Assembly (NCBI GenBank): GCA_003331545.1
Contig: QOPC01000001.1
Location: 297 to 64,296, forward strand
Direction: 5' to 3'
DNA from: SAR86 cluster bacterium
GTDB lineage: Bacteria; Pseudomonadota; Gammaproteobacteria; Magnimaribacterales; D2472
Length of the DNA: 64,000 bases
Below are positions 10,534 through 38,391 of the stretch, piece after piece. Made by a program: the position numbers and the translations under genes. Numbering within the stretch: the stretch's first letter is position 1; each line of letters begins with the position of its first letter. The notes under the pieces are model-generated. The model was not told the origin of the DNA. It did not search any database and saw only the letters and a program-made list of their open reading frames with translations.

Positions 10534-10536
10534 ATT

Positions 10537-12021: not shown

Positions 12022-12023
12022 TA

Positions 12024-12386: not shown

Positions 12387-12389
12387 TAA

Positions 12390-22853: not shown

Positions 22854-22919
22854 ATTATTTCTTTTTAATTGCTTAAATTTATATTATGGTTGATGTTTAA
22901 TCAATGAGTAAAAAATAGA

Positions 22920-23990
22920 ATGCCTAAGCCACAAGAAAGAGATTTAGAACAAACAAAGGTTACTTTTGCCAATTGGCTAGAGTTAAAGCTAGAAAATATT
23001 AACAACTTAAATGTTGAATTGTTAGGGGGTCCTGAGAACACTGGTTTTTCAAACGAAACTCTCAGCTTCAATGTTTCATATAACTTAGATGGCGATGATG
23101 TAAAAAAAGGAATGGTCCTTAGATTTTATCCAGAAGGCTTTTTTGTTTTTCCTGATTATGATATTCACAAACAATATCTGATAATGCAAAAGTTAGCTGA
23201 TCATGAGATCAAAGTTCCTAATGTTCTTTGGTATGAACCAAGCGATGAGGTTTTTGGAACTTCCTTTTATGTTATGGAAATGGCGAGTGGTGATGCTCCT
23301 TCAGATAATCCACCATTTCATCAAGAGGGCTGGGTTGCCGATTCATCTGAAGAAGTGAGAGAAAATATTTGGTGGGGTTGGGTTGAACAAATGGCAAAAA
23401 TTCATCAGGTAGATATTTCTACTGGCGATTTTGAATTTCTTAATAGACCAAAACTTTCTGAAGACTATCTTGAGCAGGAATTAAATTATTATTTCAATTT
23501 CCATGACTGGGCCATGGAGGGTGAAGCTCATCCAGTTGCTGATAAGGCACGAGAATGGTTGAAAACAAACAAGCCGAGTCCTAAGCAAGCATCTATTCTT
23601 TGGGGTGATTGTCGCTGTGCAAATATTATGTATACATCAGATGGCATGGTTTCAGCAGTGCTAGATTGGGAAATGGCTGCATTGGGTGACCCTTGTATAG
23701 ATCTTGCATGGGGTATCGCAATAGACGACTGCAACTCAAAAGGAGTTCATGTTGATCGACTTAGTGGCTTTCCAGGGCCTGTTGCTACAATAGCTAAATG
23801 GGAGGCTTTAACTGGCTTCAGTGCAGAAGATTTTGATTATTATTATATTTTGGCTTTATATAAATTTACTGTAATTATGGTTAAAGTGGTAAGAAAATTA
23901 GAGCACTATGAGATCATGCCTATGGGCATGAATGCTCACATAAATAATCATGTAACGCCGATGCTAGAGGCAAAACTTAAGGAATTATAA
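22920..23990 (+). CDS. APH-fold phosphotransferase (aminoglycoside/choline kinase-like small-molecule kinase)
   Basis: Catalytic loop ILWGDCRCANIMY (HGD..N variant) and Mg-binding VLDWEMAALGDPCIDLAW. 356 aa. Confidence 0.85.
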   Translation: MPKPQERDLEQTKVTFANWLELKLENINNLNVELLGGPENTGFSNETLSFNVSYNLDGDDVKKGMVLRFYPEGFFVFPDYDIHKQYLIMQKLADHEIKVPNVLWYEPSDEVFGTSFYVMEMASGDAPSDNPPFHQEGWVADSSEEVRENIWWGWVEQMAKIHQVDISTGDFEFLNRPKLSEDYLEQELNYYFNFHDWAMEGEAHPVADKAREWLKTNKPSPKQASILWGDCRCANIMYTSDGMVSAVLDWEMAALGDPCIDLAWGIAIDDCNSKGVHVDRLSGFPGPVATIAKWEALTGFSAEDFDYYYILALYKFTVIMVKVVRKLEHYEIMPMGMNAHINNHVTPMLEAKLKEL

Positions 23991-23991
23991 A

Positions 23992-25518
23992 ATGGCAATT
24001 TTCTCTATTTCGCGTTCTGAAGAAGGTAAAAAGCTTCTCAGTTTAAAAAGTCCTGTAGATCTTTCACATATTGATACTTACGAATGTACTTCATCTTCAG
24101 AAATCTCATCAATAATGACACAAGCAAAAGTTGCGCAAACTGAATGGAAAAAAACGTCTCTTAAAGAACGAGTTGAATTAATGCATAGAGTTGCAGATGT
24201 TGTAATACAACAACAAGATCGAATCATGGAAGTTGTTATGAGAGAGACAGGCAAGCCAGAGCAAGAAGCCATGGCAATGGAAGTATTTTCAGCAGTCGAT
24301 TCATTGGTTTTTTACGCTAAGAGAGCTGAAAAATGGCTATCAGATAAAAAAATCAAGATGCATGGTCCCATGCAGTTTCTTAAGAAAACAATAATCACTT
24401 ATAAACCAAGAGGTGTGGTAGCAGTAATTACTCCTTGGAATGGTCCATTTATATTGTCCATTAATCCAGTCATTCAAGCTGTTCTTTGTGGAAACAGTGT
24501 GGTGGTTAAGCCATCTGAAGTTACTCCTATGTCTGGAGCATTGGTGCAGGAGATTTTTGCGCTAGCAGAAGCTCCTCAAAATTTAGTGCAGACAGTTATC
24601 GGTGATGGCGAAACAGGCGCTGAATTAATCGATCAGGGTCCCGACAAAATATCCTTCACTGGAAGTGTCGCTACTGGCAAAAAAATCGCTTCCAAGTGTG
24701 GAGAAATGCTTATTCCATTTAGTCTTGAGTTAGGCGGTAAAGATGCCATGATTGTCTGCTCTGACGCTAATATCAAAGATGCAGCAAGTGGAGCAGTTGT
24801 AGGTTCATGCATGAATGCAGGCCAATACTGTTGTGGCACCGAAAGAATTTATGTTATGGATGATGTGTATGATGAGTTCGTTGCCGAAGCTGTTTCTATA
24901 ACTCAATCACTTATCCAATCAAATGATTGTAAGGGTGATGTTGGCCCTACCTTTTGGGATAAGCAAGTCAACATTATTGAAGATCATGTTAATGATGCCG
25001 TTGCTAAAGGTGCCAAGGTATTGGTTGGAGGAAAAAGAAATCCAAATTTTGAAGGCCTATATTTTGAACCAACTGTTCTTGTAGAAGTTACCCATGAGAT
25101 GAAAATAATGAAAGATGAAACTTTTGGACCAATTATATCTATCATGAAGGTGCAATCAGAAGAGGAGGCATTAATGTTAGCCAATCAATCTCACTATGGC
25201 TTAAATGGAAATGTTTGGACCAAGGATTTAAAAAAAGGTCAGAGATTAGCTAAATCAATTGAAACAGGAGCCTGTTCTGTAAATGATATGGCAATGAGCT
25301 ATGGTGTTAATGAAGTTCCATTTGGCGGTGTTAAAGAAAGTGGGTTAGGTGTGGTTAATGGAAAAGAGGGCCTATTAGCATATGCCCATCCAATGCCAAT
25401 TATCATAGGTAAGAAATCCGCATCTGCTTACCCCTATACAGATAAATCATTCGAGCAACTAAAAGGAGCATTAAAAATATTTTGGGGTAATAGGCTGGTC
25501 AGAAAACTATTCGGCTAA
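23992..25518 (+). CDS. NAD(P)+-dependent aldehyde dehydrogenase
   Basis: ELGGKDA, catalytic Cys region GQYCCGTERIYV, FGPI, EVPFGGVKESG. The start is 1 bp after the kinase stop. Confidence 0.92.
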   Translation: MAIFSISRSEEGKKLLSLKSPVDLSHIDTYECTSSSEISSIMTQAKVAQTEWKKTSLKERVELMHRVADVVIQQQDRIMEVVMRETGKPEQEAMAMEVFSAVDSLVFYAKRAEKWLSDKKIKMHGPMQFLKKTIITYKPRGVVAVITPWNGPFILSINPVIQAVLCGNSVVVKPSEVTPMSGALVQEIFALAEAPQNLVQTVIGDGETGAELIDQGPDKISFTGSVATGKKIASKCGEMLIPFSLELGGKDAMIVCSDANIKDAASGAVVGSCMNAGQYCCGTERIYVMDDVYDEFVAEAVSITQSLIQSNDCKGDVGPTFWDKQVNIIEDHVNDAVAKGAKVLVGGKRNPNFEGLYFEPTVLVEVTHEMKIMKDETFGPIISIMKVQSEEEALMLANQSHYGLNGNVWTKDLKKGQRLAKSIETGACSVNDMAMSYGVNEVPFGGVKESGLGVVNGKEGLLAYAHPMPIIIGKKSASAYPYTDKSFEQLKGALKIFWGNRLVRKLFG

Positions 25519-25520
25519 TC

Positions 25521-26285
25521 TTATTGAGGTTTAGCTACGTCTAAATAACTCGGCTTTTCTCCACCACCGTGAACCTCAAGAGCAGCACCTGTAATCCAGC
25601 CCGCCAAATCGGAAGAGAAAAATATGCATGCATTAGCTATGTCTTTAGGCTTACCCATTCTTTGCATTGGAATAGTTTTGGCTACTTTATTGATTTCCTT
25701 CGTGCTCCCGTAATGAAGTATTGAATTTTCTGTTTCTATATATCCTACAATTATAGAATTAACCTTAATTTTTGGGGCCCATTCAACGGCTAAGGTTTTT
25801 GTAAGATTTACTAGGCCACCTTTAGCTGCTCCATAAGCAGCGCTCCCTGGTGTTGGTCTAGTGGCTGTTACACTTGAAATATTAATAATGTTCGAAACTG
25901 TTTTTTGCTTCATCATCATTTTGGCAAATCTTTGGCTTACATTCAGTGGGGCAGATAAATTAAGATCAATGATAGCTTCGTGGAATTTATTCGAAGCTTT
26001 TAACGCATTAGCCATTGGAGCTCCACCAGCGTTATTTATTAAAACATCAATTGATTTTGTAAGTACTTTTATTCTCTTTACAGCATTATCTAAAGATTCA
26101 ATGCTCCTAATGTCACATTCGATAAATACAGCTTTATTACCTTTCGCTTGAATAGATCTTTTTGGTTTATCACGCGCAAGGATAAAAACTTTTGCATCCT
26201 GTTTTAGGAAAGTTTTTGTAATTTCAGCACCAATACCTTTAGTACCTCCGGTAACCACTACTGATTTATTCTTAAGGTTTATCAT
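25521..26285 (-). CDS. short-chain dehydrogenase/reductase (SDR)
   Basis: TGGTKGIG, NNAG, catalytic YGAAK. Confidence 0.9.
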   Translation of the reverse strand: MINLKNKSVVVTGGTKGIGAEITKTFLKQDAKVFILARDKPKRSIQAKGNKAVFIECDIRSIESLDNAVKRIKVLTKSIDVLINNAGGAPMANALKASNKFHEAIIDLNLSAPLNVSQRFAKMMMKQKTVSNIINISSVTATRPTPGSAAYGAAKGGLVNLTKTLAVEWAPKIKVNSIIVGYIETENSILHYGSTKEINKVAKTIPMQRMGKPKDIANACIFFSSDLAGWITGAALEVHGGGEKPSYLDVAKPQ

Positions 26286-26397
26286 TTTTTCATGTTATTT
26301 AAATAATTCTATTTAAAAAAACTAATTATAAGGCATCTAATCATCAAAAAAATTCATAAATTTTTTAAATCTTTGATCATTGGTGGACTAATTAATT

Positions 26398-26405
26398 TGT
26401 ATAAT
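26398..26405 (+). promoter_or_regulatory. candidate extended -10 promoter element (TGTATAAT) for the F420 operon; SD AGGAG at 26424-26428
   Basis: TGnTATAAT lies 31 bp upstream of the npdG ATG in a 150-bp divergent intergenic region. A strong Shine-Dalgarno AGGAG lies 7 nt before the ATG at 26436. The AT-rich background makes chance matches likely. Confidence 0.35.
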
Positions 26406-26435
26406 GTGAAATAAATTTTAATCAGGAGAATTTTA

Positions 26436-27068
26436 ATGAAAATAGCTATTCTGGGAGGAACAGGTTCTTTGGGTAAAGGGTTGTCATCTCGGTGGATCAA
26501 AGCTGGTCATGATCTAATCATCGGAAGTCGAGACTTATCAAAAGCTCAAGAGGTTGCAGTCGAGCTGGGGCTAGATGCATCGGCAGGAATGTTGAATATA
26601 GATGCAGCTTCACATTGTGAACTTGCTTGCTTAACAGTTCCCTTTGCTCATCAAGAAGCAACTTTATTGAGCATTGAAGGTGCCTTAGCTGACAAAATAA
26701 TGATTGATGCAACTGTCCCATTAATGCCTCCTAAAGTTATGAGAGTTCAATTGCCTATTGAGGGCTCAGCTGCTCTTAAAGCTCAATCACTATTGGGTGA
26801 AAGCACTACAGTAATTTCTGCTTTTCAAAATATCTCAGCCGAACTGTTACAAACAGATGCTGATATAGATTGCGATGTATTGGTTGCTGGTGATTTTATT
26901 GAAGCAAGAAATACGGTAATTTCATTGGCCAAAGACGCTGGTTTGACAGCTTGGCATGCTGGTCCATTGTGCAATTCTGCTGCTGCAGAAGCTTTGACTT
27001 CGATATTGATTGCAATCAATAAAAAACATTCACTTGCTCATTCTGGAATTAGAATTACTGGGCATTAA
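26436..27068 (+). CDS. npdG: NADPH-dependent F420 reductase (Fno/NpdG family)
   Basis: 210 aa. N-terminal Rossmann motif MKIAILGGTGSLGKGLSSRW..GH.LIIGSRD is typical of NpdG/Fno. First gene of the cof/fbi operon. Confidence 0.85.
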   Translation: MKIAILGGTGSLGKGLSSRWIKAGHDLIIGSRDLSKAQEVAVELGLDASAGMLNIDAASHCELACLTVPFAHQEATLLSIEGALADKIMIDATVPLMPPKVMRVQLPIEGSAALKAQSLLGESTTVISAFQNISAELLQTDADIDCDVLVAGDFIEARNTVISLAKDAGLTAWHAGPLCNSAAAEALTSILIAINKKHSLAHSGIRITGH

Positions 27069-27117
27069 ATAAAAGAGAAATATCATTAATTCAGTTAATC
27101 TCATAGCACTAGAGACA

Positions 27118-27846
27118 TTGCCTTTGATTGAGCCTGGTGATGATCTGGCTAGCCTCATCATCAAAGCTATTAATGATGAATCGATTCTAATTGATGATGG
27201 AGATGTTTTTGCAATTGCGCAAAAGATAGTATCAAAATCTGAAAATAGGTATTTGGATTTATCCTCTGTTAACCCCTCAAAAGAGGCAATAGATCTATCA
27301 AAAAAAATCTTTAAAGAGCCAAATTTTATTCAAGCAATTCTAAATGAATCAAAGAAAGTTGTTAAATTTAGAATGGGAGTATTAATTGTTGAGCATAAAT
27401 TAGGCTTTATTCATGCAAATGCTGGAATTGACAGATCTAACATTGACCAACAAAAAGATACTGTATTACTTTTACCAAAAAGTCCGGATAAATCTGCAAA
27501 ATATTTATCAGAATCCTTATCTCGATATTTCAATAAAGAAATTTCAGTCATCATCACCGATACCATGGGTCGACCATTTAGAAATGGAATAGTGGGCTTT
27601 ACTATTGGCAGTCATAATATTGAATGCATATTAGATGAGAGAGGAAATAACGATCTTTATGGCAATGAGCTTAAAGTTACTCAGATTGCAATTGCTGATG
27701 AGTTGGCGGCAGCTTCCTCTCTATTGATGGGACAAGCAGCTCAAAAAAAACCAGTCGTAATTATTAAAAATTACAAATATAAAAAAAATAAATTCAGTGA
27801 TGCGCAGTCATTAATTCGTTCTGAGGATGAGGATTTGTTTAGATGA
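27118..27846 (+). CDS. cofE: F420-0:gamma-glutamyl ligase (stand-alone CofE, no FbiB C-terminal domain)
   Basis: LPLIEPGDDLASLI, AQKIVSKSE, HANAGIDRSN, IITDTMGRPFRNG, DELAAASSLLMGQ and RSEDEDLF match CofE. The true start is probably upstream at ATC 27082 or ATT 27085 (see finding). The coordinate given is the first canonical start (TTG). Confidence 0.88.
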   Translation: MPLIEPGDDLASLIIKAINDESILIDDGDVFAIAQKIVSKSENRYLDLSSVNPSKEAIDLSKKIFKEPNFIQAILNESKKVVKFRMGVLIVEHKLGFIHANAGIDRSNIDQQKDTVLLLPKSPDKSAKYLSESLSRYFNKEISVIITDTMGRPFRNGIVGFTIGSHNIECILDERGNNDLYGNELKVTQIAIADELAAASSLLMGQAAQKKPVVIIKNYKYKKNKFSDAQSLIRSEDEDLFR

Positions 27847-28772
27847 AAAAATACCTATTACTTTGCGGCGGTGTTGGTGGAGCTAAACTTGCATTGGGTT
27901 TTAAAAATACAGTGAATGCAGAAAATTTAGGTATTGCAGTTAATACAGGCGATGATTTTACTCACCTTAATCTTAAGATTTGCCCCGACCTAGATACAGT
28001 AATGTATACCCTTGCTGGCGAGTCAGATGTTTCTAAGGGTTGGGGAAGAAAAAATGAATCATGGAACATGCTTACAAACTTAGAAAATTTGAGCGGAGAA
28101 ACATGGTTTCAACTTGGTGATAAAGACTTAGCTACTCATATAAGAAGAACAGAACTGATTAATTTAGGTAATTCACTTTCAGAAGCCACTTATAAAATTT
28201 GTCAATCGTTTGGTTTGCCTAAATTTATATTCCCAATGAGTGATGAATCGGTTGAAACATATATTCAAACAAAAAATAGATTGCTTTCTTTTCAAGAGTA
28301 TTTTGTTAAATTAAAATGTGAACCGCCTGTGACTGATTTTGTTTTTAAAGGTTTAGACAAAGCAAAATTTAATAAGGATATTGATTTAAATTCTTATGAT
28401 GAAATTATAATTTGTCCATCAAATCCTTACGTTAGCATCAATCCAATTTTGCAACTCTCTGGTCTTCAAGATCATCTGATAGATTTTTCTAATAAAGTTT
28501 CAATAATCAGCCCGATAGTTAATGCGAAATCCTTAAAGGGACCAACCGCAAAAATGATGCAAGAGCTTGGCCACGAAATAAGTGTTAAAACTATCGCAGA
28601 ATTTTATAAAAAATATGCTAAACGAATCTTTGTTGATACCTCAGATAATGATAGTGCTAGCCATTTATCTTCATTGGGGTATGAGGTTTTTCCAACTAAT
28701 TTAATTATGAACAATACTCAATCTAAAAATAAACTTGCCCAAGAAATAATTAAGGTTTTAGAGTCCAACTAA
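27843..28772 (+). CDS. cofD: 2-phospho-L-lactate (or EPPG) transferase CofD/FbiA
   Basis: N-terminal LCGGVGGAKLALG, NTGDD..H, GWG.. and WFQLGDKDLATHIRR are typical of CofD. ATGA overlap with cofE. Confidence 0.9.
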   Translation: MKKYLLLCGGVGGAKLALGFKNTVNAENLGIAVNTGDDFTHLNLKICPDLDTVMYTLAGESDVSKGWGRKNESWNMLTNLENLSGETWFQLGDKDLATHIRRTELINLGNSLSEATYKICQSFGLPKFIFPMSDESVETYIQTKNRLLSFQEYFVKLKCEPPVTDFVFKGLDKAKFNKDIDLNSYDEIIICPSNPYVSINPILQLSGLQDHLIDFSNKVSIISPIVNAKSLKGPTAKMMQELGHEISVKTIAEFYKKYAKRIFVDTSDNDSASHLSSLGYEVFPTNLIMNNTQSKNKLAQEIIKVLESN

Positions 28773-29348
28773 ATGACAGTTTCAGCATTTGTTCCTATTA
28801 AAAAATTTTCTAGTTCTAAAGAAAGGCTATCAAATGTTCTTGATTCAATTGATCGTTCAAAGCTTGCCGAACAAATGGCAAAACATACTATAAAAACTCT
28901 TTTTGATTCTAATATTTGTGATTCTATTACCATTGTTACAAATGATAAGGATTTAAGATTTATCAATACTGTTTCATATTTTACAGAATTACCTTTAAAT
29001 CAAGCCTTACATGAAGCTATTGCATCAAAACCTGACCATGACATTACTTTGGTTATGCATGCTGATCTTCCAAGAATCAATGAAAAAGATCTTCAGAAAT
29101 TTAAAGATTCGTTTACAAAAACTAAGATCAGTATAATTTCTGATCTTCACAAGATTGGAACAAACTGTTTAATGTATGACTCATCATTGAATTTTAATCT
29201 TAAGTTTGGCGAAGATAGCTATGCTCTATTTATTAAAGAGTTTGAAAGTAATGAATTAATGCATCAAGAGATATGCTTACCAAGTCTTCAAGATGACCTT
29301 GACTCCGAGGAAGATTACTTCAAACTAAATCAATACATTAATGGATAG
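28773..29348 (+). CDS. cofC: phospholactate/phosphoenolpyruvate guanylyltransferase CofC/FbiD
   Basis: 191 aa. N-terminal FVPIKKFSSSKERLS (the iPvK...K.RL motif of the CofC/MobA-like fold). The ATG directly follows the cofD TAA. Confidence 0.78.
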   Translation: MTVSAFVPIKKFSSSKERLSNVLDSIDRSKLAEQMAKHTIKTLFDSNICDSITIVTNDKDLRFINTVSYFTELPLNQALHEAIASKPDHDITLVMHADLPRINEKDLQKFKDSFTKTKISIISDLHKIGTNCLMYDSSLNFNLKFGEDSYALFIKEFESNELMHQEICLPSLQDDLDSEEDYFKLNQYING

Positions 29349-31767
29349 CAAGTTGAACATTCAAGAACAATCTAATCTTTCGCTCAGGCAGTTAATTTTG
29401 CACGACAGTATATCCTCTTCTGAATTAGTAAGTCTTTCCAATATATGTTTATCAGATAGCTTGATTAAAGCCTCATTTGATAAAAAAAGGCTATATTTTA
29501 ATGATGAACTTACCTATTCACCAAAAGTATTTATCCCATTAACATTTTTATGCAGAGATGTTTGTCACTATTGTACTTTTGCTAAAACTCCAAAGAAGGT
29601 TGAATCTCCTTATTTATCAATAGAGCAGGTTGTTGCAATTGCAAAAGAGGGACAAATCAATGGATGTCACGAAGCTCTGTTTACTTTGGGTGATAAACCA
29701 GAATTACGTTATAAGGCAGCTCGAGAATGGTTAAAATCTAATGGTTTTAAAACAACCAATGAGTATCTTGGTGCCTGTGCAGAAGCAGTTTTAAAAGAAA
29801 CATCACTTATTCCTCACCTTAATTCAGGATGCTTAACAGCTGAAGAAATTTCTAAACTAAAGCCATTAAGCGGTTCGATGGGTTTAATGGTTGAGTCACT
29901 ATCGACAAAACTTACAGAAAAGGGTCAACCTCATTATGGATCTCCTGATAAAGATCCATTATTCAGAATGCAAACACTTGAAGAGGCAGGAAAACAAAAA
30001 GTACCTTTTACAACTGGAATTCTAATTGGTATAGGGGAAACAAGGTTGGAAAGACTTGAATCTATATACGAAATTCGAGAATTACATAAAAAATATAATC
30101 ATATTCAAGAAGTAATAGTTCAAAATTTTAAAGCTAAGCCTAATACACTGATGGCCAATTCAGCTGAACCTTCATTCGATGAGTTAATGTGGACTATTGC
30201 AATGGCCAGATTGATATTGCCAGCTGAAGTGAGTTTGCAAGTTCCTCCTAATTTAAATGCTGAACACATAAAAAAATTAACAGTTTCTGGAATTAATGAT
30301 TTCGGAGGAATTTCTCCAGTCACAAAAGATTACGTAAATCCTGAGGCGCCATGGCCTGAGATAGAGAAGCTTGATCAAATAGCTTTCTTATCGAATCAAG
30401 TCTTAAAACCAAGAGCAACACTTTACCCTAGATATTTTTCAAAGCTTGAATCGTTCTCAACACCACTAATTACCTCAAGGCTTCTTGATATTACTGATGC
30501 ACAATCATTAATAAGATCTGATAAGTGGAAATCTGGTGTAAGCAATAATGTCCCATCTTATTCTAGCGGCACTTCTAATTCTAATATTAAAAAAACCATA
30601 GATGATGTAGAAAGAAATCCAACGTTAAAAAATATTCAAGAACTTTTAGAATCTTCCAATCGAGACTTTCAGTACATTATTGATTATGCAAATAGTAAAA
30701 AGTTAGATATTTTTGGTTCGGATGTTAGTTTCGTTGTAAACAGAAATATTAATTACACCAATATATGCTCCTTTAAATGCAATTTCTGTGCTTTCTCTAA
30801 GGGCAGAGGACATGATGATCTTAGAGGTAAGCCTTACAACATTTCTCATGAAGAAATAGTCAGAAGAACTAAGGAAGCAATAAACAGAGGCGCAACCGAG
30901 GTTTGCTTGCAGGGTGGAATTCATCCAAAATATTCAGGTGATACATACTTAGACATAGTTAAATCAATAAGGTCCGCATCAAGTTCTATTCATATTCATG
31001 CTTTTTCTCCTCTTGAGATAGATCATGGCAGAAAGACTCTTAATATTTCAGCGCAAGAATTTCTTCAAGAATTAAAAAGTGCAGGGCTTAACTCCCTACC
31101 AGGAACAGCTGCTGAAATTTTACACGATGACGTTAGAGCAATTATTTGCCCAGATAAATTATCTACCGATCAATGGATAAATATTATAAAAACAGCTCAT
31201 AATGTTGGCCTTCCAACCACCTCAACCATGATGTTCGGTCATGTTGAAAATATGACGCATATCGCACATCATTTGCTAAAGCTTTATTATCTTCAATTAG
31301 AAACTAATGGCATCACTGAGTTTGTACCATTACCTTTTGTTGCTGAAGAGGCTCCCATTTATAGAAAAGGATTGGCAAGACCTGGCCCTACATTTAAGGA
31401 AACAATATTAATCCACTCCGTTGCAAGGATTCTCTTTCATGGAACGATAAACAATATCCAAGGTTCATGGGTAAAAATGGGCTTGCCAGGATTAAAATTT
31501 CTTTTAACTGCTGGAATTAATGATATTGGTGGGGTATTAATGAATGAGTCAATTACCAGATCTGCTGGCGCTTCCTTTGGTCAAGAATTACATCTCAACG
31601 ACGTTAGAAACATTACCGATGAATTAGGTCTATCATTAACTCAAAGGAATACACTCTATAAACCTCTACAAAATAACATTGAGGATTTAATGATCGCTCA
31701 GTCAATTCCATTGCTTCCAATAAATAATGAGTACCATCAACCAAAAAAAATAGTTAACAATTTATGA
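29341..31767 (+). CDS. fbiC: FO synthase, fused CofG-CofH (FbiC)
   Basis: 808 aa with two radical-SAM CxxxCxxC clusters, CRDVCHYCTF (N half) and CSFKCNFCAF (C half). Both halves are of TIM-barrel radical-SAM length. Confidence 0.93.
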   Translation: MDSKLNIQEQSNLSLRQLILHDSISSSELVSLSNICLSDSLIKASFDKKRLYFNDELTYSPKVFIPLTFLCRDVCHYCTFAKTPKKVESPYLSIEQVVAIAKEGQINGCHEALFTLGDKPELRYKAAREWLKSNGFKTTNEYLGACAEAVLKETSLIPHLNSGCLTAEEISKLKPLSGSMGLMVESLSTKLTEKGQPHYGSPDKDPLFRMQTLEEAGKQKVPFTTGILIGIGETRLERLESIYEIRELHKKYNHIQEVIVQNFKAKPNTLMANSAEPSFDELMWTIAMARLILPAEVSLQVPPNLNAEHIKKLTVSGINDFGGISPVTKDYVNPEAPWPEIEKLDQIAFLSNQVLKPRATLYPRYFSKLESFSTPLITSRLLDITDAQSLIRSDKWKSGVSNNVPSYSSGTSNSNIKKTIDDVERNPTLKNIQELLESSNRDFQYIIDYANSKKLDIFGSDVSFVVNRNINYTNICSFKCNFCAFSKGRGHDDLRGKPYNISHEEIVRRTKEAINRGATEVCLQGGIHPKYSGDTYLDIVKSIRSASSSIHIHAFSPLEIDHGRKTLNISAQEFLQELKSAGLNSLPGTAAEILHDDVRAIICPDKLSTDQWINIIKTAHNVGLPTTSTMMFGHVENMTHIAHHLLKLYYLQLETNGITEFVPLPFVAEEAPIYRKGLARPGPTFKETILIHSVARILFHGTINNIQGSWVKMGLPGLKFLLTAGINDIGGVLMNESITRSAGASFGQELHLNDVRNITDELGLSLTQRNTLYKPLQNNIEDLMIAQSIPLLPINNEYHQPKKIVNNL

Positions 31768-32642
31768 AAACAAAACTCACACACCTATCTATCATTCTTG
31801 CTGGCTATATAGCCTGCATCTACTCTATGCAATTTACTTGGAGCCTTTTATCAGACTTCTCCTTAGTATCTAAAGTATTCATATGCCACGTTGAAGCCAC
31901 AATCTTTATTTATATTTTAAGTGTTCTATTTAATAATTCGAGCTGGTATGACGCCTTTTGGTCCGTCATTCCAGTTGCATTAACTATTATGTGCTGGTCT
32001 GATATCTCGGCAGCTGGGGATGTCCAAAGAGCGTTTTTAATGCATGCCTGCCTTCTTTTTTGGGCAATCAGACTTACCTACAACTGGATTAGATCATGGG
32101 AGGGTTTTTCTCATGAAGATTGGCGCTATGTAATGATGAAAGGAAAGACAGAAAATAAATTTCAATATTTTATGGTTGATTTTGGCTCCATTCACCTTAT
32201 CCCTACAATATGTGTCTACATGGCATTACTTCCAATGATTTATGCTCTTGCTTATCCAGGAGATGGCTTGAATTTGCTTGATGCAGTTGCAACATTACTA
32301 GCTGTAATTGCTGTTATTATTCAAATTATCTCAGATCAGCAAATGTATAATTTTAGAAAAAATATTTCTGAACCCCAAACTATGCAGTCAGGATTATGGT
32401 TTTATTCCAGGCATCCAAATTATTTTGGTGAAATTCTTTTCTGGTTTAGTTTATTTGTTTTTGCAATAGCTGCAGATATTGGTTTTGCTTGGCTTTTAAT
32501 AGGCTGTGTAATTATGTACGCTTTAATAGCAATTGCCTCGGTTGCTATGATGGATAAAAGATCTTTGTTAAGGCGTCCAGACTTTAAGGAATACATGGAT
32601 TCAACACCTCCGATTTTTATAAATTTTTTTAAGAAAGGTTAA
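31764..32642 (+). CDS. DUF1295 / steroid 5-alpha-reductase-superfamily polytopic membrane protein
   Basis: 292 aa with about 7-8 TM segments. C-terminal signature GLWFYSRHPNYFGEILFW. ATGA overlap with the fbiC stop. Confidence 0.85.
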   Translation: MKTKLTHLSIILAGYIACIYSMQFTWSLLSDFSLVSKVFICHVEATIFIYILSVLFNNSSWYDAFWSVIPVALTIMCWSDISAAGDVQRAFLMHACLLFWAIRLTYNWIRSWEGFSHEDWRYVMMKGKTENKFQYFMVDFGSIHLIPTICVYMALLPMIYALAYPGDGLNLLDAVATLLAVIAVIIQIISDQQMYNFRKNISEPQTMQSGLWFYSRHPNYFGEILFWFSLFVFAIAADIGFAWLLIGCVIMYALIAIASVAMMDKRSLLRRPDFKEYMDSTPPIFINFFKKG

Positions 32643-32645
32643 AAA

Positions 32646-33947
32646 ATGAAAAAATTTTTAATCCTAAACCTGATGTTACTTCTAGCCATTTCTAATGCTG
32701 CAGAAGAATTAAGGTTGCAGTTAGATCAAGATTTAGATGGTGTTATGACAAAGGTTACAAATTGGAGACATTATTTCCATCAGTATCCAGAGCTATCAAA
32801 CAGAGAATTCAAAACTCAGAAGTCTATTGCTGATGCCTTAATTGAAATGGGCCTCGAGCCAGATCTAAGTTTTGGAAAAACTGGTGTAGTAGCATTCATT
32901 AGAGGACAAAAGCCTGGACCTTTAATAGCCTTAAGAGCAGACATAGATGGTCTGCCTGTGACTGAAAAATTGAATTTACCTTTTTCTTCAAAAGAAAAAA
33001 CAATGTATCAAGGAAATGAAGTTGGTGTTATGCATGCATGTGGTCATGATGCCCACATAGCTGTTCTTTTGGGAGTTGCAAGTTTTCTATCTCAAAATAC
33101 AGACAAGTTAAGTGGTGATATATTTCTAATTTTTCAGCCCGCGGAAGAGGGTGCTCCTGAAGGAGAGGAGGGCGGTGCCGAACTAATGCTTAAAGAGGGT
33201 TTGTTTGATGCTGAAAAACCCGATGCTATTTTTGGGCTTCACGTATCAAATGGATTGCATGGAGGAATTATGCTTAAACCTGGACCTGCAATGGCATCAG
33301 CAGAGGCATTCAGAATTACAATTGAGGGTGAGCAAACCCATGGGTCTAGACCTTGGTCAGGAATTGATCCGATAGTAACTGCATCAGATATAGTCTCAAC
33401 TCTTCAAACAATAGTGAGCAGAAGATTAAACTTACTTGAAAGCCAGGCAGTTGTTACCGTCGGAATTATGAAGGCGGGGACAAGAAATAATATAATTCCA
33501 TCGTCTGCTATGTTAGAAGGCACAATAAGAACATTTGAAGACTCATATACTGATCAAATTCGGGCTGAAATAAAATTGATTTCTGAAAATGTAGCAGAAG
33601 CTCATGGAGCAAAAGCAAATGTCGAGTTTAAAGTTTATGGAGGCTATCCAGTTACTTTTAATGATTTAGAGTTATCTGAAAAGTATGCTTCATCACTTTC
33701 AGAGGCCGCCGATGGAAAGTATTATGAGGCAAGAGTTCCTCGAACTGGGGCTGAAGATTTTTCTTTCTATGCTCAACAAGTTCCAGGACTTTTCTTTTTT
33801 CTTGGAGTGAATGCGCCTGGAATAGAAGATAGTCCAACAAATCATTCTCCTTATTTTTATGTTGATGATAATGCTTTATCAAGTGGGGTAAAAGCATTTA
33901 TAAATCTAGTAGAAGATTACTCTTCAGATTTTAATGCTGGTAGTTAA
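32646..33947 (+). CDS. exported M20D-family amidohydrolase (aminoacylase / hippurate hydrolase / AbgAB-like)
   Basis: Signal peptide MKKFLILNLMLLLAISNA. Metal-site motifs MHACGHDAH and QPAEEG, and HSPYF near the C-terminus. The start is 3 bp after the DUF1295 stop. Confidence 0.88.
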   Translation: MKKFLILNLMLLLAISNAAEELRLQLDQDLDGVMTKVTNWRHYFHQYPELSNREFKTQKSIADALIEMGLEPDLSFGKTGVVAFIRGQKPGPLIALRADIDGLPVTEKLNLPFSSKEKTMYQGNEVGVMHACGHDAHIAVLLGVASFLSQNTDKLSGDIFLIFQPAEEGAPEGEEGGAELMLKEGLFDAEKPDAIFGLHVSNGLHGGIMLKPGPAMASAEAFRITIEGEQTHGSRPWSGIDPIVTASDIVSTLQTIVSRRLNLLESQAVVTVGIMKAGTRNNIIPSSAMLEGTIRTFEDSYTDQIRAEIKLISENVAEAHGAKANVEFKVYGGYPVTFNDLELSEKYASSLSEAADGKYYEARVPRTGAEDFSFYAQQVPGLFFFLGVNAPGIEDSPTNHSPYFYVDDNALSSGVKAFINLVEDYSSDFNAGS

Positions 33948-34135
33948 AATAAATTAAAAATCTTCAGCAATATCAATAGAATAGATATAAACATTAGCAC
34001 CAAAATTATTGGATACTGACCAAGCTTTAATGAAATCTTTTTTGGCAATAACAACAAACAAAGAATCGCAAAAGAGGTAATCCCAACTCCCCAGAGTAAA
34101 GTAGTTAACTCCTCAAACAGGCTTCCAAGAATCAA
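33944..34135 (-). CDS. possible small two-TM membrane protein
   Basis: 63-aa ORF with two hydrophobic stretches, 5 bp downstream of the NMO gene on the same strand. No homology recognised, and it could be a chance ORF in AT-rich spacer. Confidence 0.3.
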   Translation of the reverse strand: MILGSLFEELTTLLWGVGITSFAILCLLLLPKKISLKLGQYPIILVLMFISILLILLKIFNLF

Positions 34136-34140
34136 TTATT

Positions 34141-35271
34141 TTAATCTTCAGGAAGCAGGGAATTTAATCGATCAATTGAATCAAGATATTCATTTACCAT
34201 TCTATAAATGACATCTTTCACGGATTCTACTTGCTTAACTTGACCAATCACCTGTCCTGCCGCATTAAATGAAACTTCCTGAGTATTCCCTGATGCTGCA
34301 TACATTGATGTTCTTCTCATTGCATCAAAAGTTATCATTCCTTGAAGAGGCATGGGTAATGGATCAGGATTTTCTGGATTTTCCCATGCTTCAGTCCATT
34401 TATTCTTAAGCATTCTTGCCGGTTTACCAGTCCATGCTTTACTTCTTATAGTGTCTTCACTTGTGGCATTCAAGTAGGAATCTTTTTCAGCTGGTTGGGC
34501 GGCAGCCTCTTCAACTGCAAGCCATAAAGAACCACACCAGATCCCTTGAACCCCGGTAGACATTGCAGCTGCCATTTGTCTTCCACTACCAATTCCACCT
34601 GCGGCCAGAACAGGCAAACCATCAACTGCATCAACAATTTGGGGCCACAACACAATACTGCCAATTTCTCCAGTATGACCACCACCTTCACCTCCCTGGG
34701 CAATAATAAAATCCAAACCAGCTTCTTTGTGAGCAACTGCCTGTTTTATTTTTCCACATAAAGCACCTATTAGAACACCTTTATCCTGAATCTTTTCTAT
34801 CATGTCTGCAGGGGGTGTTCCTAATGCATTAGCAATAAGCTTTACATTGGGATGCTTTAAAGCTTCATCAATTTGAGGTTCAGCTGTTGCCTCAGTCCAT
34901 CCAAGTAATCCTCCTTTTGGACCATTTGTTTCAGGAGCTTCGGGAACGCCATGAGTTGTTAAGAGATTATCTACGAACTCTCTGTGAGCATCCGGTATCA
35001 TTTTTTGCAATGATTCCAATAATTCTTCAGGATCTTTCTGATCCATACCCTCATATTTTTGAGGTATTACAGTATCTACACCATACGGATAATCACCAAT
35101 ATGTTCATCAATCCAATCAAGCTCTTCTTTTAATTGCTCAGGCGAATAACCAACAGCTCCAAGAACCCCAATACCACCAGCTTTACTAACTGCAACAACC
35201 ACATCGCGACAATGCGTGAAAGCAAAAATTGGATATTCAATACCTAGTTTTTTACATATATCAGTTTTCAT
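34141..35271 (-). CDS. nitronate monooxygenase (NMO)/FMN-dependent enoyl-reductase-like TIM-barrel protein
   Basis: YPIFAF...GGIGVLG, AQGGEGGGHTG, AAGGIGSG. 376 aa. Confidence 0.88.
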   Translation of the reverse strand: MKTDICKKLGIEYPIFAFTHCRDVVVAVSKAGGIGVLGAVGYSPEQLKEELDWIDEHIGDYPYGVDTVIPQKYEGMDQKDPEELLESLQKMIPDAHREFVDNLLTTHGVPEAPETNGPKGGLLGWTEATAEPQIDEALKHPNVKLIANALGTPPADMIEKIQDKGVLIGALCGKIKQAVAHKEAGLDFIIAQGGEGGGHTGEIGSIVLWPQIVDAVDGLPVLAAGGIGSGRQMAAAMSTGVQGIWCGSLWLAVEEAAAQPAEKDSYLNATSEDTIRSKAWTGKPARMLKNKWTEAWENPENPDPLPMPLQGMITFDAMRRTSMYAASGNTQEVSFNAAGQVIGQVKQVESVKDVIYRMVNEYLDSIDRLNSLLPED

Positions 35272-35425
35272 TTAAGCCTCATTTACAAATAAAGTTAAAT
35301 TATAGACATTTATAAAATATTTGTGACCAAGAATAGATTAATTTTTTTAAATAATATTATTTTAAAAAATGTTCTAAGTTATTATGAATTAGTTACAATC
35401 TATTAAAAAAACTTATTAATTAATT

Positions 35426-37135
35426 ATGAAATGGGATTACGAATTTGATGTTGTTGTTGTAGGTTCTGGAAATGGGGCTCTTACATCTGCTATATGTAGT
35501 CATGATGGTGGTGCAAAGACATTAGTTATTGAAAAAAGCGATCAGTATGGAGGAACCTCCGCAACCTCAGGGGGTGGCGTTTGGATTCCTAATAATAGGT
35601 ACGCTAAAGCAGAAAAAGTCGATGATTCTGATCAAGATGCGAGAGATTATATTAATAGCGTATCACCAGAAGGAAAAATTAAAGATGAGTTAGTTGAAAC
35701 CTATATTGCTGAAGGACCTAAAATGATCGACTATCTGCACGAGAATTCACAAGTAAAATATAGAAATTTGGCTCACTATCCAGATTATTTTCCAGATAAT
35801 CCGGGCGGAAAAGCTGGAAATAGATCAATGGAACCAGAGCCTATAAAAGGCACCGAGCTCGGTGATGATCTCGGCAGATTAAGAGGTCAACATCCTCAAA
35901 CAGCTTTTACAATGGGCCCAATTAATATGAACTTCACGCAAGTAGAGGGCCAGCTACTTTTGGGTGCCTTGCCAGGCTGGAAATCTCAATTTGCAAAATT
36001 GTTTACAAAATATATTTTAGATATTCCCATGAGAATAAAGTGGGGCTGGAAAGATAGAAGATTGACGATGGGTAATGCAGGTGTAGCCAGACTAATCTTG
36101 TCATTAAAAGATAGAAATGTAGATATGTGGACAATGACCTCAATGACAGATCTTATTGATCAAAATGGTTCCGTTATAGGTATAAAAGCTATGCAAGATA
36201 ATAAAGAAATTAATATCAAAGCAAACAAAGGAGTAATTCTTGCTGCTGGTGGGTTTGAGAAAGATCAAAGTTTAAGAGATCAATACCTACCTAAGCCTTC
36301 GAAGGCTGAGTGGAGTGCTGCGAATACCTTTAATACAGGAGACGCATTAAAAGCTGCTTTAAGATTAGGAGCAGACACTCATCAAATGGATACCGGTTGG
36401 TGGTCGACTGTTATGAAAGTTCCAGGTCAAGATAAAGGCTGGTTATCTATGGTTGATAAATCAATGCCTGGAAATTTTACCGTTAATAAAAAGGGAGAAA
36501 GGTTTTCAAATGAATCACAAAATTATGTAAGTTTTGTAAATGATATGTTTGATAAATATGCGGAAGGTAATCCATGTGCTCCCTGTTATATGGTTTTTGA
36601 TAGTACCTTTAGAAAAAATCGACCTTGCGGTCCACTTCTTCAAGCTTCAATGCAACCAGATTCTGCTGTACCTAAGGAATGGTGGACGCCTACCTTTTTG
36701 TCTAAAGGAGATACATTAGAGGAGCTTGCTGAAATTGCAGGTATCGATATCGATGGCTTATTAGCGACTCAAGCTAAAGTAAACGAATATTCTAAGTCTG
36801 GCAAAGATCTTGATCTTCAAAGAGGAGATAGTGTTTATGATAGGTACTATGGCGATCCATCAGTTACTCCAAATCCGTGCTTAGCGCCATTAGAGAAAGG
36901 TCCATTTTATTGCATGGTTTTATATCCTGGGGAAATGGGTACCGCCGGAGGACTAGTAATTGATACACATGCTAGAGTGCTAAATAAAGAGGGACAAGTT
37001 ATAAACGGACTATATGCATGTGGAAATTGTTCAACAGCCTTACTTCCAACATATCCAGGTCCTGGTTCTACCCTTGGACCAGCAATGACTTTTGGTTATT
37101 TAGCAGCTAAAGATATTACTGGCTCAAATTTTTGA
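35426..37135 (+). CDS. FAD-dependent 3-ketosteroid delta-1-dehydrogenase (KstD)-like oxidoreductase
   Basis: DVVVVGSGNGALTSA...VIEKSDQYGGTSATSGGGVWIPNN. The C-terminal GLYACGNCS...YPGPGSTLGPAMTFGY is typical of the KstD/fumarate-reductase flavoprotein family. 569 aa. Confidence 0.82.
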   Translation: MKWDYEFDVVVVGSGNGALTSAICSHDGGAKTLVIEKSDQYGGTSATSGGGVWIPNNRYAKAEKVDDSDQDARDYINSVSPEGKIKDELVETYIAEGPKMIDYLHENSQVKYRNLAHYPDYFPDNPGGKAGNRSMEPEPIKGTELGDDLGRLRGQHPQTAFTMGPINMNFTQVEGQLLLGALPGWKSQFAKLFTKYILDIPMRIKWGWKDRRLTMGNAGVARLILSLKDRNVDMWTMTSMTDLIDQNGSVIGIKAMQDNKEINIKANKGVILAAGGFEKDQSLRDQYLPKPSKAEWSAANTFNTGDALKAALRLGADTHQMDTGWWSTVMKVPGQDKGWLSMVDKSMPGNFTVNKKGERFSNESQNYVSFVNDMFDKYAEGNPCAPCYMVFDSTFRKNRPCGPLLQASMQPDSAVPKEWWTPTFLSKGDTLEELAEIAGIDIDGLLATQAKVNEYSKSGKDLDLQRGDSVYDRYYGDPSVTPNPCLAPLEKGPFYCMVLYPGEMGTAGGLVIDTHARVLNKEGQVINGLYACGNCSTALLPTYPGPGSTLGPAMTFGYLAAKDITGSNF

Positions 37136-37890
37136 GAATGAATTTCTCTGGTAAAACCGCCCTAATTACAGGCTCTGGTCAAGGAGTCGGAGAGGGTATA
37201 GCCAGGGCTCTTGCTTCATATGGTGCAAATGTAAGCCTGGCTGGAAGAACTTTATCAAAAGTACAATTAGTGGCTGATGAAATTAATAGTTCGGGTGGAT
37301 CAGCAATTGCGATCGAATGCGATGTTAAAGATCTCGGTTCAATAAACAATTCAATTACACTAACTCTTTCTAAATTTGAGTCCCTAAATATTTTAATAAA
37401 TAATGCGCAAGAGGTTCCCTTAGGAAATTTGCTAGATGTAACAGATGAATCATTTTTAAATGGATGGAATTCAGGACCTTTGGCTACATTTAGATTTATG
37501 AAATCCTGCTATCCCCACCTTAAAGGAGATGGAAAGGTAATTAACCTCGCTAGCTCATCTGCTTTAAGGCCTGATTCAAGCTCATATGGGGCATATGCTG
37601 CCGTAAAAGAATCTATCAGATCAATATCAAGAGCAGCTGCTGTTGAATGGGGACCAGACAATATTATGGTGAATTGTATTATGCCCCTTGCAAAATCTGC
37701 TGGAATGGATTGGTGGATGAATGAAAATCCAGATGAGGCAAATGAATTTTTGAAAACTATTCCTTTAGGAAAAGTTGGCGATTGCAAGGATGATATAGGT
37801 GAAGCTGTATGTCATCTTCTATCAGACGGTATGAATTATATTACTGGATCCACGATTATGCTTGATGGGGGACAAGCTTTTTTAAGGTAA
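37132..37890 (+). CDS. short-chain dehydrogenase/reductase (SDR)
   Basis: TGSGQGVG, NNAQ, catalytic YAAVK. ATGA overlap with the upstream gene. Confidence 0.88.
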   Translation: MRMNFSGKTALITGSGQGVGEGIARALASYGANVSLAGRTLSKVQLVADEINSSGGSAIAIECDVKDLGSINNSITLTLSKFESLNILINNAQEVPLGNLLDVTDESFLNGWNSGPLATFRFMKSCYPHLKGDGKVINLASSSALRPDSSSYGAYAAVKESIRSISRAAAVEWGPDNIMVNCIMPLAKSAGMDWWMNENPDEANEFLKTIPLGKVGDCKDDIGEAVCHLLSDGMNYITGSTIMLDGGQAFLR

Positions 37891-37897
37891 ATACCAT

Positions 37898-38389
37898 ATG
37901 GATAAATTACAAATGTTATTAGATATCGAAGAGATTAAAAATCTAAAACATAGATATTTTAGAGCCATTGATATGGCAGATTTTGATCTGCTTGATGGAG
38001 TCTTTGCAGAAAATATTACAATTGATTATCGTGGAGGTACTTATAGGTGGGAGTCAGAGGGCAAAAATACAATTAAGGAAAGTCTAAGGCATGCATTTCA
38101 CAACCAATCAGCCGCAATGCATACAGCCCATCATCCTGAAATTGATATTCTTTCAGAAACTGAGGCAACAGGAAAATGGTATCTTCAAGATATATTTTAC
38201 AATTTTGATTTAGATAGTGTCACTCAGGGTACTGCGTTGTATGAAGATAAATACATCAAGGTAAATGAGAGTTGGCTAATTTTACATTCTGAGTATGATC
38301 GTATTTGGGAACAAGTCTCACCGATCAATCCAAAGGATAAATTTACAAAAATTCTTTTAAAAGAAAAAGGAATAAAAAAAAAGGAATAA
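37898..38389 (+). CDS. NTF2-fold SnoaL_4-like protein
   Basis: 163 aa. The N-terminal LLDIEEIKNLKHRYFRAIDMADFDLL pattern is typical of SnoaL-like/BaiE-like NTF2 proteins. Confidence 0.65.
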   Translation: MDKLQMLLDIEEIKNLKHRYFRAIDMADFDLLDGVFAENITIDYRGGTYRWESEGKNTIKESLRHAFHNQSAAMHTAHHPEIDILSETEATGKWYLQDIFYNFDLDSVTQGTALYEDKYIKVNESWLILHSEYDRIWEQVSPINPKDKFTKILLKEKGIKKKE

Positions 38390-38391
38390 AC

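Follow-up and report, generated by a model that had tools for sequence, protein, structure and literature searches.

A predicted coenzyme F420 biosynthesis and recycling module in the marine SAR86 group and the genes attached to it

Clusters for the biosynthesis of coenzyme F420 that combine a stand-alone CofE with Fno have been described among Proteobacteria for Paracoccus denitrificans and Oligotropha carboxidovorans (Ney et al. 2017, as reported in PMC8498797). As far as that account goes, these clusters contain a fused FbiC, separate CofC, CofD and CofE proteins without a nitroreductase domain, Fno as the reducer of F420 and a CofC of the 2-phospholactate (2-PL)/phosphoenolpyruvate (PEP) type, and their physiological role is not known. 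The same picture is presented by a gene block at positions 26436-33947 of a 64,000-nucleotide stretch of DNA from a SAR86 cluster bacterium (GenBank assembly GCA_003331545.1, contig QOPC01000001.1, positions 297 to 64,296), the whole of which is called the window here. Seven genes are tightly packed on its plus strand, encoding Fno, CofE, CofD, CofC, a fused FbiC, a DUF1295 protein and an M20D amidohydrolase. The block is very probably the SAR86 version of a gammaproteobacterial F420 biosynthesis-plus-recycling module, which would be inherited vertically, yield F420 of the lactyl type and have luciferase-like (LLM) oxidoreductases as its consumers. Compared with the clusters of Paracoccus and Oligotropha, this one belongs to an AT-rich marine gammaproteobacterium and is ordered fno-cofE-cofD-cofC-fbiC, a short-chain dehydrogenase/reductase (SDR) gene diverges from fno, DUF1295 and an exported M20D are appended, and neither Fgd nor another known F420 enzyme is present in the 64-kb window.

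Three routes to the C3 part of F420 are known (PMC8498797): from 2-phospho-L-lactate in archaea, from PEP with subsequent reduction of dehydro-F420 by FbiB's C-terminal domain or by FbiE, and from 3-phosphoglycerate (3-PG) in Mycetohabitans. The 3PG-F420 cluster of Mycetohabitans (Paraburkholderia) rhizoxinica resembles the window in its Gram-negative host, its stand-alone CofE, Fno as the sole known F420 reducer, the lack of a dehydro-F420 reductase and the lack of a recognisable F420-dependent enzyme nearby (PMC8498797). In that CofC, a Ser or Thr at the position of S162 is diagnostic for the use of 3-PG (Hasan et al., PMC8764529), and a helper His (H145) assists S162 (PMC8764529). The CofC of the window has Gly instead of Ser at the diagnostic site and no helper His, and 3PG-F420 is not predicted for this reason. 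With the mycobacterial and Thermomicrobial PEP route (FbiD-FbiA-FbiB or FbiE; PMC6450877, PMC8498797) the window shares the FbiC fusion protein and the CofC residues that bind PEP or 2-PL. The difference is that a nitroreductase-type dehydro-F420 reductase, be it the FbiB C-terminal domain or FbiE, turned up neither in the ORFs (open reading frames) of the window nor in some 95 related loci, nor in the neighbour clusters that are conserved, a result which applies at the level of the loci. If PEP is the substrate, the reductase would be of a type other than FbiB-C and FbiE. In lacking an assigned source for the linker, the locus is like other Gram-negative producers.

SAR86 ranks among the heterotrophic bacteria that are most abundant in surface ocean waters. 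In the literature searched, no paper was found that links F420 or deazaflavin to SAR86 or to the Halieaceae. The interest of the locus lies in a dominant ocean host that has not been discussed as an F420 producer in that literature, in the breadth of the trait among marine Gammaproteobacteria, and in an accessory set of SDR, DUF1295 and M20 that can be held against a missing reductase or 2-PL source.

Gene content and layout of the locus

The curated equivalog cut-offs of NCBIfam were used as identity thresholds for the five core genes, and all five reach them. Fno scores 183 bits with TIGR01915 (npdG, cut-off 150) over residues 1-207 of 210. CofE is 242 amino acids (aa) long, scores 262 bits with TIGR01916 (cut-off 181) and has PF01996 as its single domain, without a nitroreductase domain. 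CofD reaches 273 bits with TIGR01819 (cut-off 257), and CofC 108 bits with TIGR03552 (cut-off 105). In FbiC (808 aa), the CofG domain gives 482 bits with TIGR03550 (cut-off 213) and the CofH domain 503 bits with TIGR03551 (cut-off 374), and the two radical-SAM CxxxCxxC sites read CRDVCHYC at residue 71 and CSFKCNFC at residue 476. The names given to the seven genes in the initial annotation (Fno, CofE, CofD, CofC, FbiC, DUF1295 and M20D) are all correct, and its claim of a genuine F420 pathway, rather than one for the deazaflavin FO alone, is borne out by the presence of cofC, cofD, cofE and fno. The features of the locus are as follows:

26436-27068, plus strand: fno/npdG, NADPH-dependent F420 reductase, gene 1 of the operon (TIGR01915 equivalog, PF03807)
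27118-27846 (from TTG), plus strand: cofE, stand-alone F420-0:gamma-glutamyl ligase (TIGR01916; PF01996 the only domain)
27843-28772, plus strand: cofD (fbiA), transferase joining the activated C3 acid to FO (TIGR01819 equivalog)
28773-29348, plus strand: cofC (fbiD), guanylyltransferase of the 2-phospholactate/PEP type (TIGR03552; profile match to CofC/FbiD structures)
29341-31767, plus strand: fbiC, fused CofG-CofH FO synthase (TIGR03550, TIGR03551; two CxxxCxxC)
31764-32642, plus strand: DUF1295 polytopic membrane protein of the steroid-5-alpha-reductase/ICMT superfamily (PF06966, PF02544)
32646-33947, plus strand: exported M20D amidohydrolase, last gene of the block (TIGR01891; N-terminus like a signal peptide)
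25521-26285, minus strand: classical NADP-type SDR, divergent from fno (NF005893 (PRK07856) equivalog)
26396-26405, plus strand: probable extended -10 element TTTGTATAAT of the fno operon (invariant across species)
26424-26428, plus strand: AGGAG ribosome-binding site of fno (invariant across species)
22920-23990, plus strand: APH-family kinase (syntenic upstream neighbour in SAR86)
23992-25518, plus strand: aldehyde dehydrogenase, Aldh (syntenic upstream neighbour in SAR86)

All seven frames were found again at the positions, on the strand and with the packing first described, and the junctions agree when re-read in the sequence: cofE and cofD share an ATGA overlap, the ATG of cofC directly abuts the TAA of cofD, fbiC and DUF1295 share a further ATGA overlap, and 3 nt separate DUF1295 from M20. 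The overlap between cofC and fbiC is 8 nt. The extent of the block as first drawn holds for these seven genes and left out the divergent SDR, which belongs to the conserved unit.

There is no ATG for cofE, and its frame is open from 27073 (in window positions 27070-27124). Upstream of the first TTG, the CofE-like residues NLIALETLPLI are kept in all main-clade SAR86 loci; this region aligns with the N-terminus of relatives, whose ATG lies about 12 residues before PLVEPGDDL, and a purine-rich AAGAGA precedes the ATC/ATT at 27082-27087. The true start of cofE is probably located upstream of the TTG, at a non-canonical ATC/ATT near 27082-27087.

The intergenic region between the SDR and fno is 150 nt long, with a mean column identity of 62% across 10 SAR86 species, in all of which TTTGTATAAT and AGGAG are invariant; judged by this conservation, TTTGTATAAT is a probable extended -10 promoter. 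The conserved TGTATAAT element surfaced only through the cross-species alignment: in a generic promoter and terminator scan of 22700-35500 the counts were at chance level and the site at 26396-26405 was not flagged. An Rfam scan of the whole window gave no riboswitch near the operon, its single match being a tRNA at 8785-8858 on the minus strand. Transcription would probably start at the TGTATAAT element about 30 nt upstream of fno, and the transcript would probably run through the translationally coupled genes as far as M20, a single-transcript structure that we infer from the arrangement of the genes.

From this gene content, production of F420 by the locus is predicted. FbiC would make FO from tyrosine and a riboflavin precursor; CofC would activate a C3 acid with GTP, and CofD would move the activated acid onto FO; the stand-alone CofE would then add the gamma-glutamyl tail, and Fno would keep the cofactor reduced using NADPH.

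Distribution, inheritance and accessory genes

To survey the distribution of the module, 80 species-representative loci recovered with an FbiC alignment were analysed by tblastn and by clustering of their ORFs; SAR86 has 13 species representatives among them (loci L014-L026). The order fno-cofE-cofD-cofC-fbiC was found in 13/13 main-clade SAR86 representatives, as far as the contigs extend, and also in at least about 40 other marine gammaproteobacterial species representatives. The latter include the families Halieaceae (Halioglobus, Seongchinamella), Spongiibacteraceae (Zhongshania, Spongiibacter), Porticoccaceae, K189A and Azotimanducaceae, together with Litorivivens, Neomelitea and unnamed Pseudomonadales. 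In every surveyed gammaproteobacterial locus with the full operon, fno is the first gene. The pathway had been called unexpected in this context and only sporadic, a description that does not survive such a distribution. The best species-representative matches are SAR86 single-cell genomes and metagenome-assembled genomes (MAGs). An FbiC protein identical to that of the window occurs in 304 indexed blocks of a metagenome collection, and the contigs read with it come from TARA and other marine assemblies, plus the MAG GCA_045563995.1.

The GC content of the operon (0.32-0.365) is the same as that of the rest of the window, and its tetranucleotide signature is native. In the neighbour-joining tree of FbiC, the loci group by operon type and lineage, and synteny spans SAR86 species at 52-100% protein identity. 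Because of the native composition and the grouping of FbiC by operon type, the operon looks vertically inherited, with lineage-specific gain and loss of accessory genes. Phylogenies of fbiC, cofD and cofE had been proposed as a test for horizontal origin; with the FbiC loci grouped in this way, a recent horizontal arrival of the operon in SAR86 is unlikely.

The divergent SDR scores 333 bits with the NF005893 (PRK07856) equivalog (cut-off 255), and the motifs TGGTKGIG, NNAG and YGAAK can be read in its sequence. A homologue of about 50% identity occupies the same divergent slot beside fno in SAR86, Halieaceae, Spongiibacteraceae, Litorivivens and Neomelitea, and the gene beyond it varies by group, being Aldh, a 747-aa protein or pyruvate kinase. 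The SDR is counted in the module because its pairing with fno is kept while the gene on the far side differs, which is the pattern of functional coupling. That is to say, this NADP-type SDR appears to be a module member common to several families, and it is the linkage that suggests a biochemical role.

The DUF1295 protein of the window is UniRef A0A368BSG9, deposited as SAR86 cluster bacterium. It scores 144 bits with PF06966 and, over residues 176-251, 25.9 with Steroid_dh (PF02544, gathering score 22.6). It resembles the steroid 5-alpha-reductase/ICMT superfamily (a Pfam clan with PF02544, PF04140 and PF06966) in reaching the PF02544 gathering score, in its polytopic, all-helical AlphaFold model (pLDDT 94) and in a conserved region with the motif SRHPNYFGE. 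It is unlike this superfamily in that Foldseek matches it only weakly to SRD5A2 and ICMT (E 0.13-0.27, TM 0.32-0.41) and in that its sequence matches no solved structure. No published link between DUF1295 and F420 was found in the literature searched.

The homologues of this protein form a graded series: those with identities as low as 52% still stand immediately behind fbiC, and those at about 40% lie in unrelated contexts, unlinked to F420 genes. DUF1295 stands directly after fbiC in all main-clade SAR86 loci covering the position, except for the low-quality L024, where the ORF is uncalled. In a sister clade (L069, L088 and L094, the last a SAR86-labelled MAG), it again follows fbiC and the genes downstream are unrelated; L094 has a methyltransferase and a glycosyltransferase there. 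Replacement of the neighbouring NMO/KstD block in L009 and L023 has left both DUF1295 and M20 in place. The linkage of fbiC and DUF1295 goes beyond clade synteny, because it is kept in L069, L088 and L094 with differing flanking genes. DUF1295 would be an old accessory partner of fbiC that is specific to the SAR86 order, with a role that its linkage suggests.

The M20 protein scores 323 bits with TIGR01891 (cut-off 154) and matches PF01546 and PF07687, the dimerisation domain included. Its closest solved relatives are YxeP (1ysj), N-acyl-glutamine aminoacylase (6slf) and the ILR1-like hydrolases, and its N-terminus, MKKFLILNLMLLLAISNA|AEE, resembles a Sec signal peptide. An identification as CpsA was rejected, the equivalog score of 353 bits being under the cut-off of 500. 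Linkage of M20 to the block is seen in the main SAR86 clade alone, and none follows DUF1295 in L069, L088 and L094; the absence of M20 from the sister clade makes it the more recent and weaker partner. It is accordingly placed here as a putative later addition in the main SAR86 clade, whose role is again suggested by linkage.

Another type of locus has a lone fbiC without cof genes. It is exemplified by L027:10001-17182, with equivalents in L030, L031, L033, L037, L039, L041, L042, L047, L049, L052, L058, L062, L064, L065 and L076. Three genes are conserved downstream, encoding an epimerase-like protein that binds NAD(P), a protein of 334 aa and no family, and a CDP-alcohol phosphatidyltransferase, and they are often followed by a different M20 peptidase. 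The latter and the M20 of the window are only 22% identical, and a shared F420 link of the two was rejected. FbiC of the lone type forms two neighbouring groups in the tree beside the Halieaceae clade; these loci could supply FO only, or an undescribed product derived from FO. Some labels look unreliable: L065 (CAMCRC010000031.1), which carries the marine lone-fbiC cluster, is titled 'MAG: Klebsiella pneumoniae', and L033 (NVVJ01000023.1), the SAR86-labelled MAG NORP66, is of the lone-fbiC type and does not have the SAR86 operon.

Type of linker and consumers of the cofactor

For the specificity of CofC, a profile of 39 gammaproteobacterial orthologues was aligned to 7P97, 2I5E and 6BWG, with E-values of 4e-40, 1e-31 and 3e-27, respectively. 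The catalytic, Mg-binding Asp triad (D98, D175 and D177) and the Ser that binds the carboxylate (S149) are invariant in the 39 orthologues and correspond to D116, D191, D193 and S165 of 7P97; the motif G129-T130-N131 is also conserved. The site equivalent to S162 is G146 in the window; 26 of the 39 orthologues have Gly there, the other 13 have Asp, and Ser and Thr do not occur. The position of the helper His is taken by I128. Because CofC has Gly, and not Ser or Thr, at the diagnostic site for 3-PG, the predicted product is the classical lactyl-linked F420, made from 2-phospho-L-lactate or PEP.

With regard to a supply of 2-phospho-L-lactate, the APH-family kinase and Aldh upstream of the SDR deserve mention. 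They lie 1 bp apart and occur in all main-clade SAR86 loci and, apart from these, only in L088. The model that comes nearest to Aldh is that of succinic-semialdehyde dehydrogenase (456 bits, cut-off 521); its identification as a CofA-type lactaldehyde dehydrogenase is not supported, since the archaeal model gives no more than 297 bits (cut-off 650). In no organism has the lactate kinase CofB been identified (PMC6450877). The link of the pair to F420 is weak, and its candidacy for the supply of 2-phospholactate is speculative. In Spongiibacteraceae and Litorivivens, a canonical pyruvate kinase lies beside SDR-fno (L028:4293-5723; L029, L035, L036, L044 and L072). Carboxylic acids with an alpha substituent can be phosphorylated by pyruvate kinase (Ash et al., as cited in PMC6450877); the enzyme beside SDR-fno could be a maker of 2-phospholactate and may equally be a housekeeping neighbour. 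As a special module gene it was set aside, being a canonical pyruvate kinase and probably a housekeeping neighbour.

As for the enzymes that would use the cofactor, every ORF of the window of at least 110 aa was covered, either by a Pfam scan or through Pfam hits already computed for identical loci. The 64-kb window yielded no domain of the luciferase-like, FDOR/PPOX, nitroreductase or photolyase type, and none of the known F420-dependent families (LLM, FDOR/PPOX, Fgd) is present there, as the initial annotation had stated. Its further remark that the purpose of the cofactor is open holds for the window, where no client was found; it holds less well for sister lineages, which have a TIGR03619 LLM in or beside the operon. 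The neighbouring oxidoreductases, which had been thought the obvious clients, do surround the operon. However, NMO, the KstD-like protein, the SDRs and the SnoaL proteins are of FMN, FAD or NAD(P) families, and they are replaced in L009, L023 and L094 while the operon stays; for these two reasons they are weak candidates.

In ten loci a luciferase-like gene of 290-300 aa lies divergently upstream of fno, and in L088, L094 and L095 such a gene lies between cofC and fbiC on the opposite strand. A TIGR03619 LLM is present in L046, L050, L057, L063, L066, L074, L075, L087, L088, L092, L093, L094 and L095. The operon-linked LLM scores 171.6 with TIGR03619 (cut-off 166.9), and its NCBI name is 'F420-dependent LLM class oxidoreductase'. 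A second LLM gene is often nearby; it stays under the cut-offs of the F420-LLM subfamily models, its best scores being 154 for TIGR03854 (cut-off 296) and 144 for TIGR03619 (cut-off 167). In the SAR86 sister clade, an extra dienelactone-hydrolase-like alpha/beta hydrolase is also inserted between cofC and fbiC; the coordinates of the cofC-fbiC inserts in this clade are L088:8117-9943, L094:10001-10876, L095:1122-2941, L069:9052-9999, L056:4078-5007 and L082:1506-2435.

Away from the operon, an orphan LLM (P0241) belongs to a cluster of 3,275 members and reaches 177 bits with TIGR03619 (cut-off 166.9). It lies at the aceEF/pheST locus of a low-GC marine genome. The tetranucleotide correlation of this locus with main-clade SAR86 loci is r = 0.965-0.982, which is within the range of the clade, compared with 0.94-0.95 for the equally AT-rich sister clade and 0.90 for an unrelated AT-rich locus. 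Among the relatives of its PheS, the only taxon-specific label is SAR86, at 78% identity, and the cluster names of its housekeeping genes say 'Gammaproteobacteria' only; one PheS relative is labelled Marinimicrobia, and this label looks unreliable. The genome of P0241 is probably of the SAR86 group. SAR86-group genomes thus probably encode a known type of F420 client away from the operon. F420H2 would most likely go to luciferase-like oxidoreductases of the TIGR03619 type, which lie in or beside the operon in sister lineages and would lie elsewhere in this lineage.

F420 biosynthesis genes are abundant in marine metagenomes (review PMC8498797). If the reading of the block given above is true, the module of SAR86 and other marine Gammaproteobacteria would name a source for part of these genes, and low-potential hydride chemistry would take part in the turnover of marine organic matter, with LLM oxidoreductases as the likeliest agents. 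The operon variants with SDR, DUF1295, M20, LLM and the dienelactone-hydrolase-like gene form a natural comparative data set, which bears on the source of the lactyl linker in bacteria without the FbiB reductase domain and on the purpose of F420 in Proteobacteria.

Competing explanations and the surrounding genes

It is quite possible, though not the favoured explanation, that DUF1295 and M20 are passengers unrelated to F420, which, like many genes nearby, may serve lipid or steroid-like catabolism or the periplasmic scavenging of peptides and acyl-amino acids. In the main SAR86 clade, synteny extends over the entire 20-kb neighbourhood, and the window has many KshA-like, KstD-like, SnoaL, P450 and Baeyer-Villiger monooxygenase (BVMO) genes; moreover, the signal peptide would put M20 to work away from the cytoplasm, the site of F420 synthesis, L069, L088 and L094 lack M20, and DUF1295 homologues that share about 40% identity are found in unrelated surroundings. 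This must be set against the ATGA by which DUF1295 overlaps fbiC and the spacer of 3 nt in front of M20, which imply co-translation and co-transcription, against the position of DUF1295 after fbiC in L094, L088 and L069 despite unrelated downstream genes, and against L009 and L023, which keep both genes while the NMO/KstD block changes. That the cluster as a whole is a recently acquired horizontal island, or only supplies FO for a photolyase antenna, is extremely improbable. The F420 genes of Gram-negative bacteria are held to derive ultimately from Actinobacteria (PMC8764529, introduction), and many marine relatives have a lone fbiC without cof genes. However, GC content and tetranucleotide signature are native, synteny is kept across divergent SAR86 species, the FbiC clades track operon type, no photolyase gene is present in the window, and cofC, cofD, cofE and fno, which are needless for the supply of FO alone, are intact and conserved.

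The other alternatives concern the linker. The stand-alone CofE, Fno as the sole F420 reducer and the lack of a reductase reproduce the situation of Mycetohabitans (PMC8498797), and the CofC profile scores best with the 3-PG enzyme 7P97 (4e-40), all of which would fit an operon that makes glyceryl-linked 3PG-F420 and needs neither a reductase nor a source of 2-phospholactate. This is nevertheless very unlikely, given G146 at the diagnostic position, no Ser or Thr in the 39 orthologues and Ile in place of H145. It is unlikely, too, that DUF1295 or the divergent SDR, using NADPH, reduces the enolpyruvyl C=C of a PEP-derived dehydro-F420-0 and so replaces the FbiB C-terminal domain or FbiE. The absence of a nitroreductase-type gene from the window and the roughly 95 related loci, the stand-alone CofE and the 2-PL/PEP type of CofC would leave room for such an enzyme. 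DUF1295 is translationally coupled to fbiC, its linkage outlasts changes of flanking genes, and it reaches the Pfam gathering score of the C-terminal domain of steroid 5-alpha-reductases, which are NADPH-dependent C=C reductases; the SDR is paired with fno in at least four families with differing outer genes. But most families outside SAR86 have the same missing step and no DUF1295 in the operon, DUF1295 is a polytopic membrane protein and the substrate is hydrophilic, methyltransferases also belong to the DUF1295 superfamily and the fold matches are weak, the signature of the SDR is that of a classical YxxxK ketoreductase and not of an enoyl-reductase, and there are alphaproteobacterial F420 producers whose CofC prefers 2-PL in vitro (PMC8764529). 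A broader proposal, which is rather doubtful, is that the marine gammaproteobacterial module encodes the missing lactyl side-chain chemistry, either as an accessory reductase or as a 2-PL supply by kinase and Aldh. In that case the SDR or DUF1295 may be a new type of dehydro-F420-0 reductase, or the APH-family kinase and Aldh may supply 2-phospho-L-lactate, the kinase being CofB; alternatively, DUF1295 could be the first membrane-bound F420H2-dependent ene-reductase. If none of the accessory genes is relevant, what is left is a well-annotated cofactor operon in an important organism and no more.

The reading preferred here, a vertically inherited module with a lactyl-type product and LLM consumers, has several points against it. 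CofC clears its cut-off narrowly (108 against 105), and as a single sequence it is so divergent from the PDB structures that the alignment is too weak for specificity residues, a problem overcome with the profile built from 39 orthologues. In the window and the related loci, no 2-phospholactate source and no dehydro-F420 reductase came to light. Only 13 SAR86 representatives were retrieved, and with the lone fbiC of the SAR86-labelled L033 universality is not implied. The SAR86 affiliation of P0241 rests on composition and a single taxon label, and the client enzyme is not placed in the same genome as the window. In addition, the synteny of the main clade is wide, and part of the adjacency of DUF1295 and M20 could be inherited gene order.

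Among the genes around the module, a sulfotransferase (20632-21771) and an adjacent 360-aa protein (21771-22853), which has no Pfam or NCBIfam match, adjoin the APH-Aldh pair across SAR86 loci. In the Halieaceae a 'UDG' after fbiC was considered as a module gene and rejected; it is an ordinary Ung and probably a housekeeping neighbour. Genes typical of steroid-like or alicyclic catabolism lie at 1541-2893, 7332-8777, 17850-18848 and 35426-38820 of the window: a cytochrome P450, a BVMO-like flavin monooxygenase, a KshA-like Rieske oxygenase, an SDR, two SnoaL-like proteins and a KstD-like FAD dehydrogenase, the last of which scores 526 bits against a cut-off of 788. A 155-aa ORF at 8966-9433 gave no family match. 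It is followed at 9439-15368 by a signalling cluster, which comprises one EAL and one HisKA-receiver-GGDEF protein, a single-domain response regulator and a hybrid histidine kinase of 992 aa.

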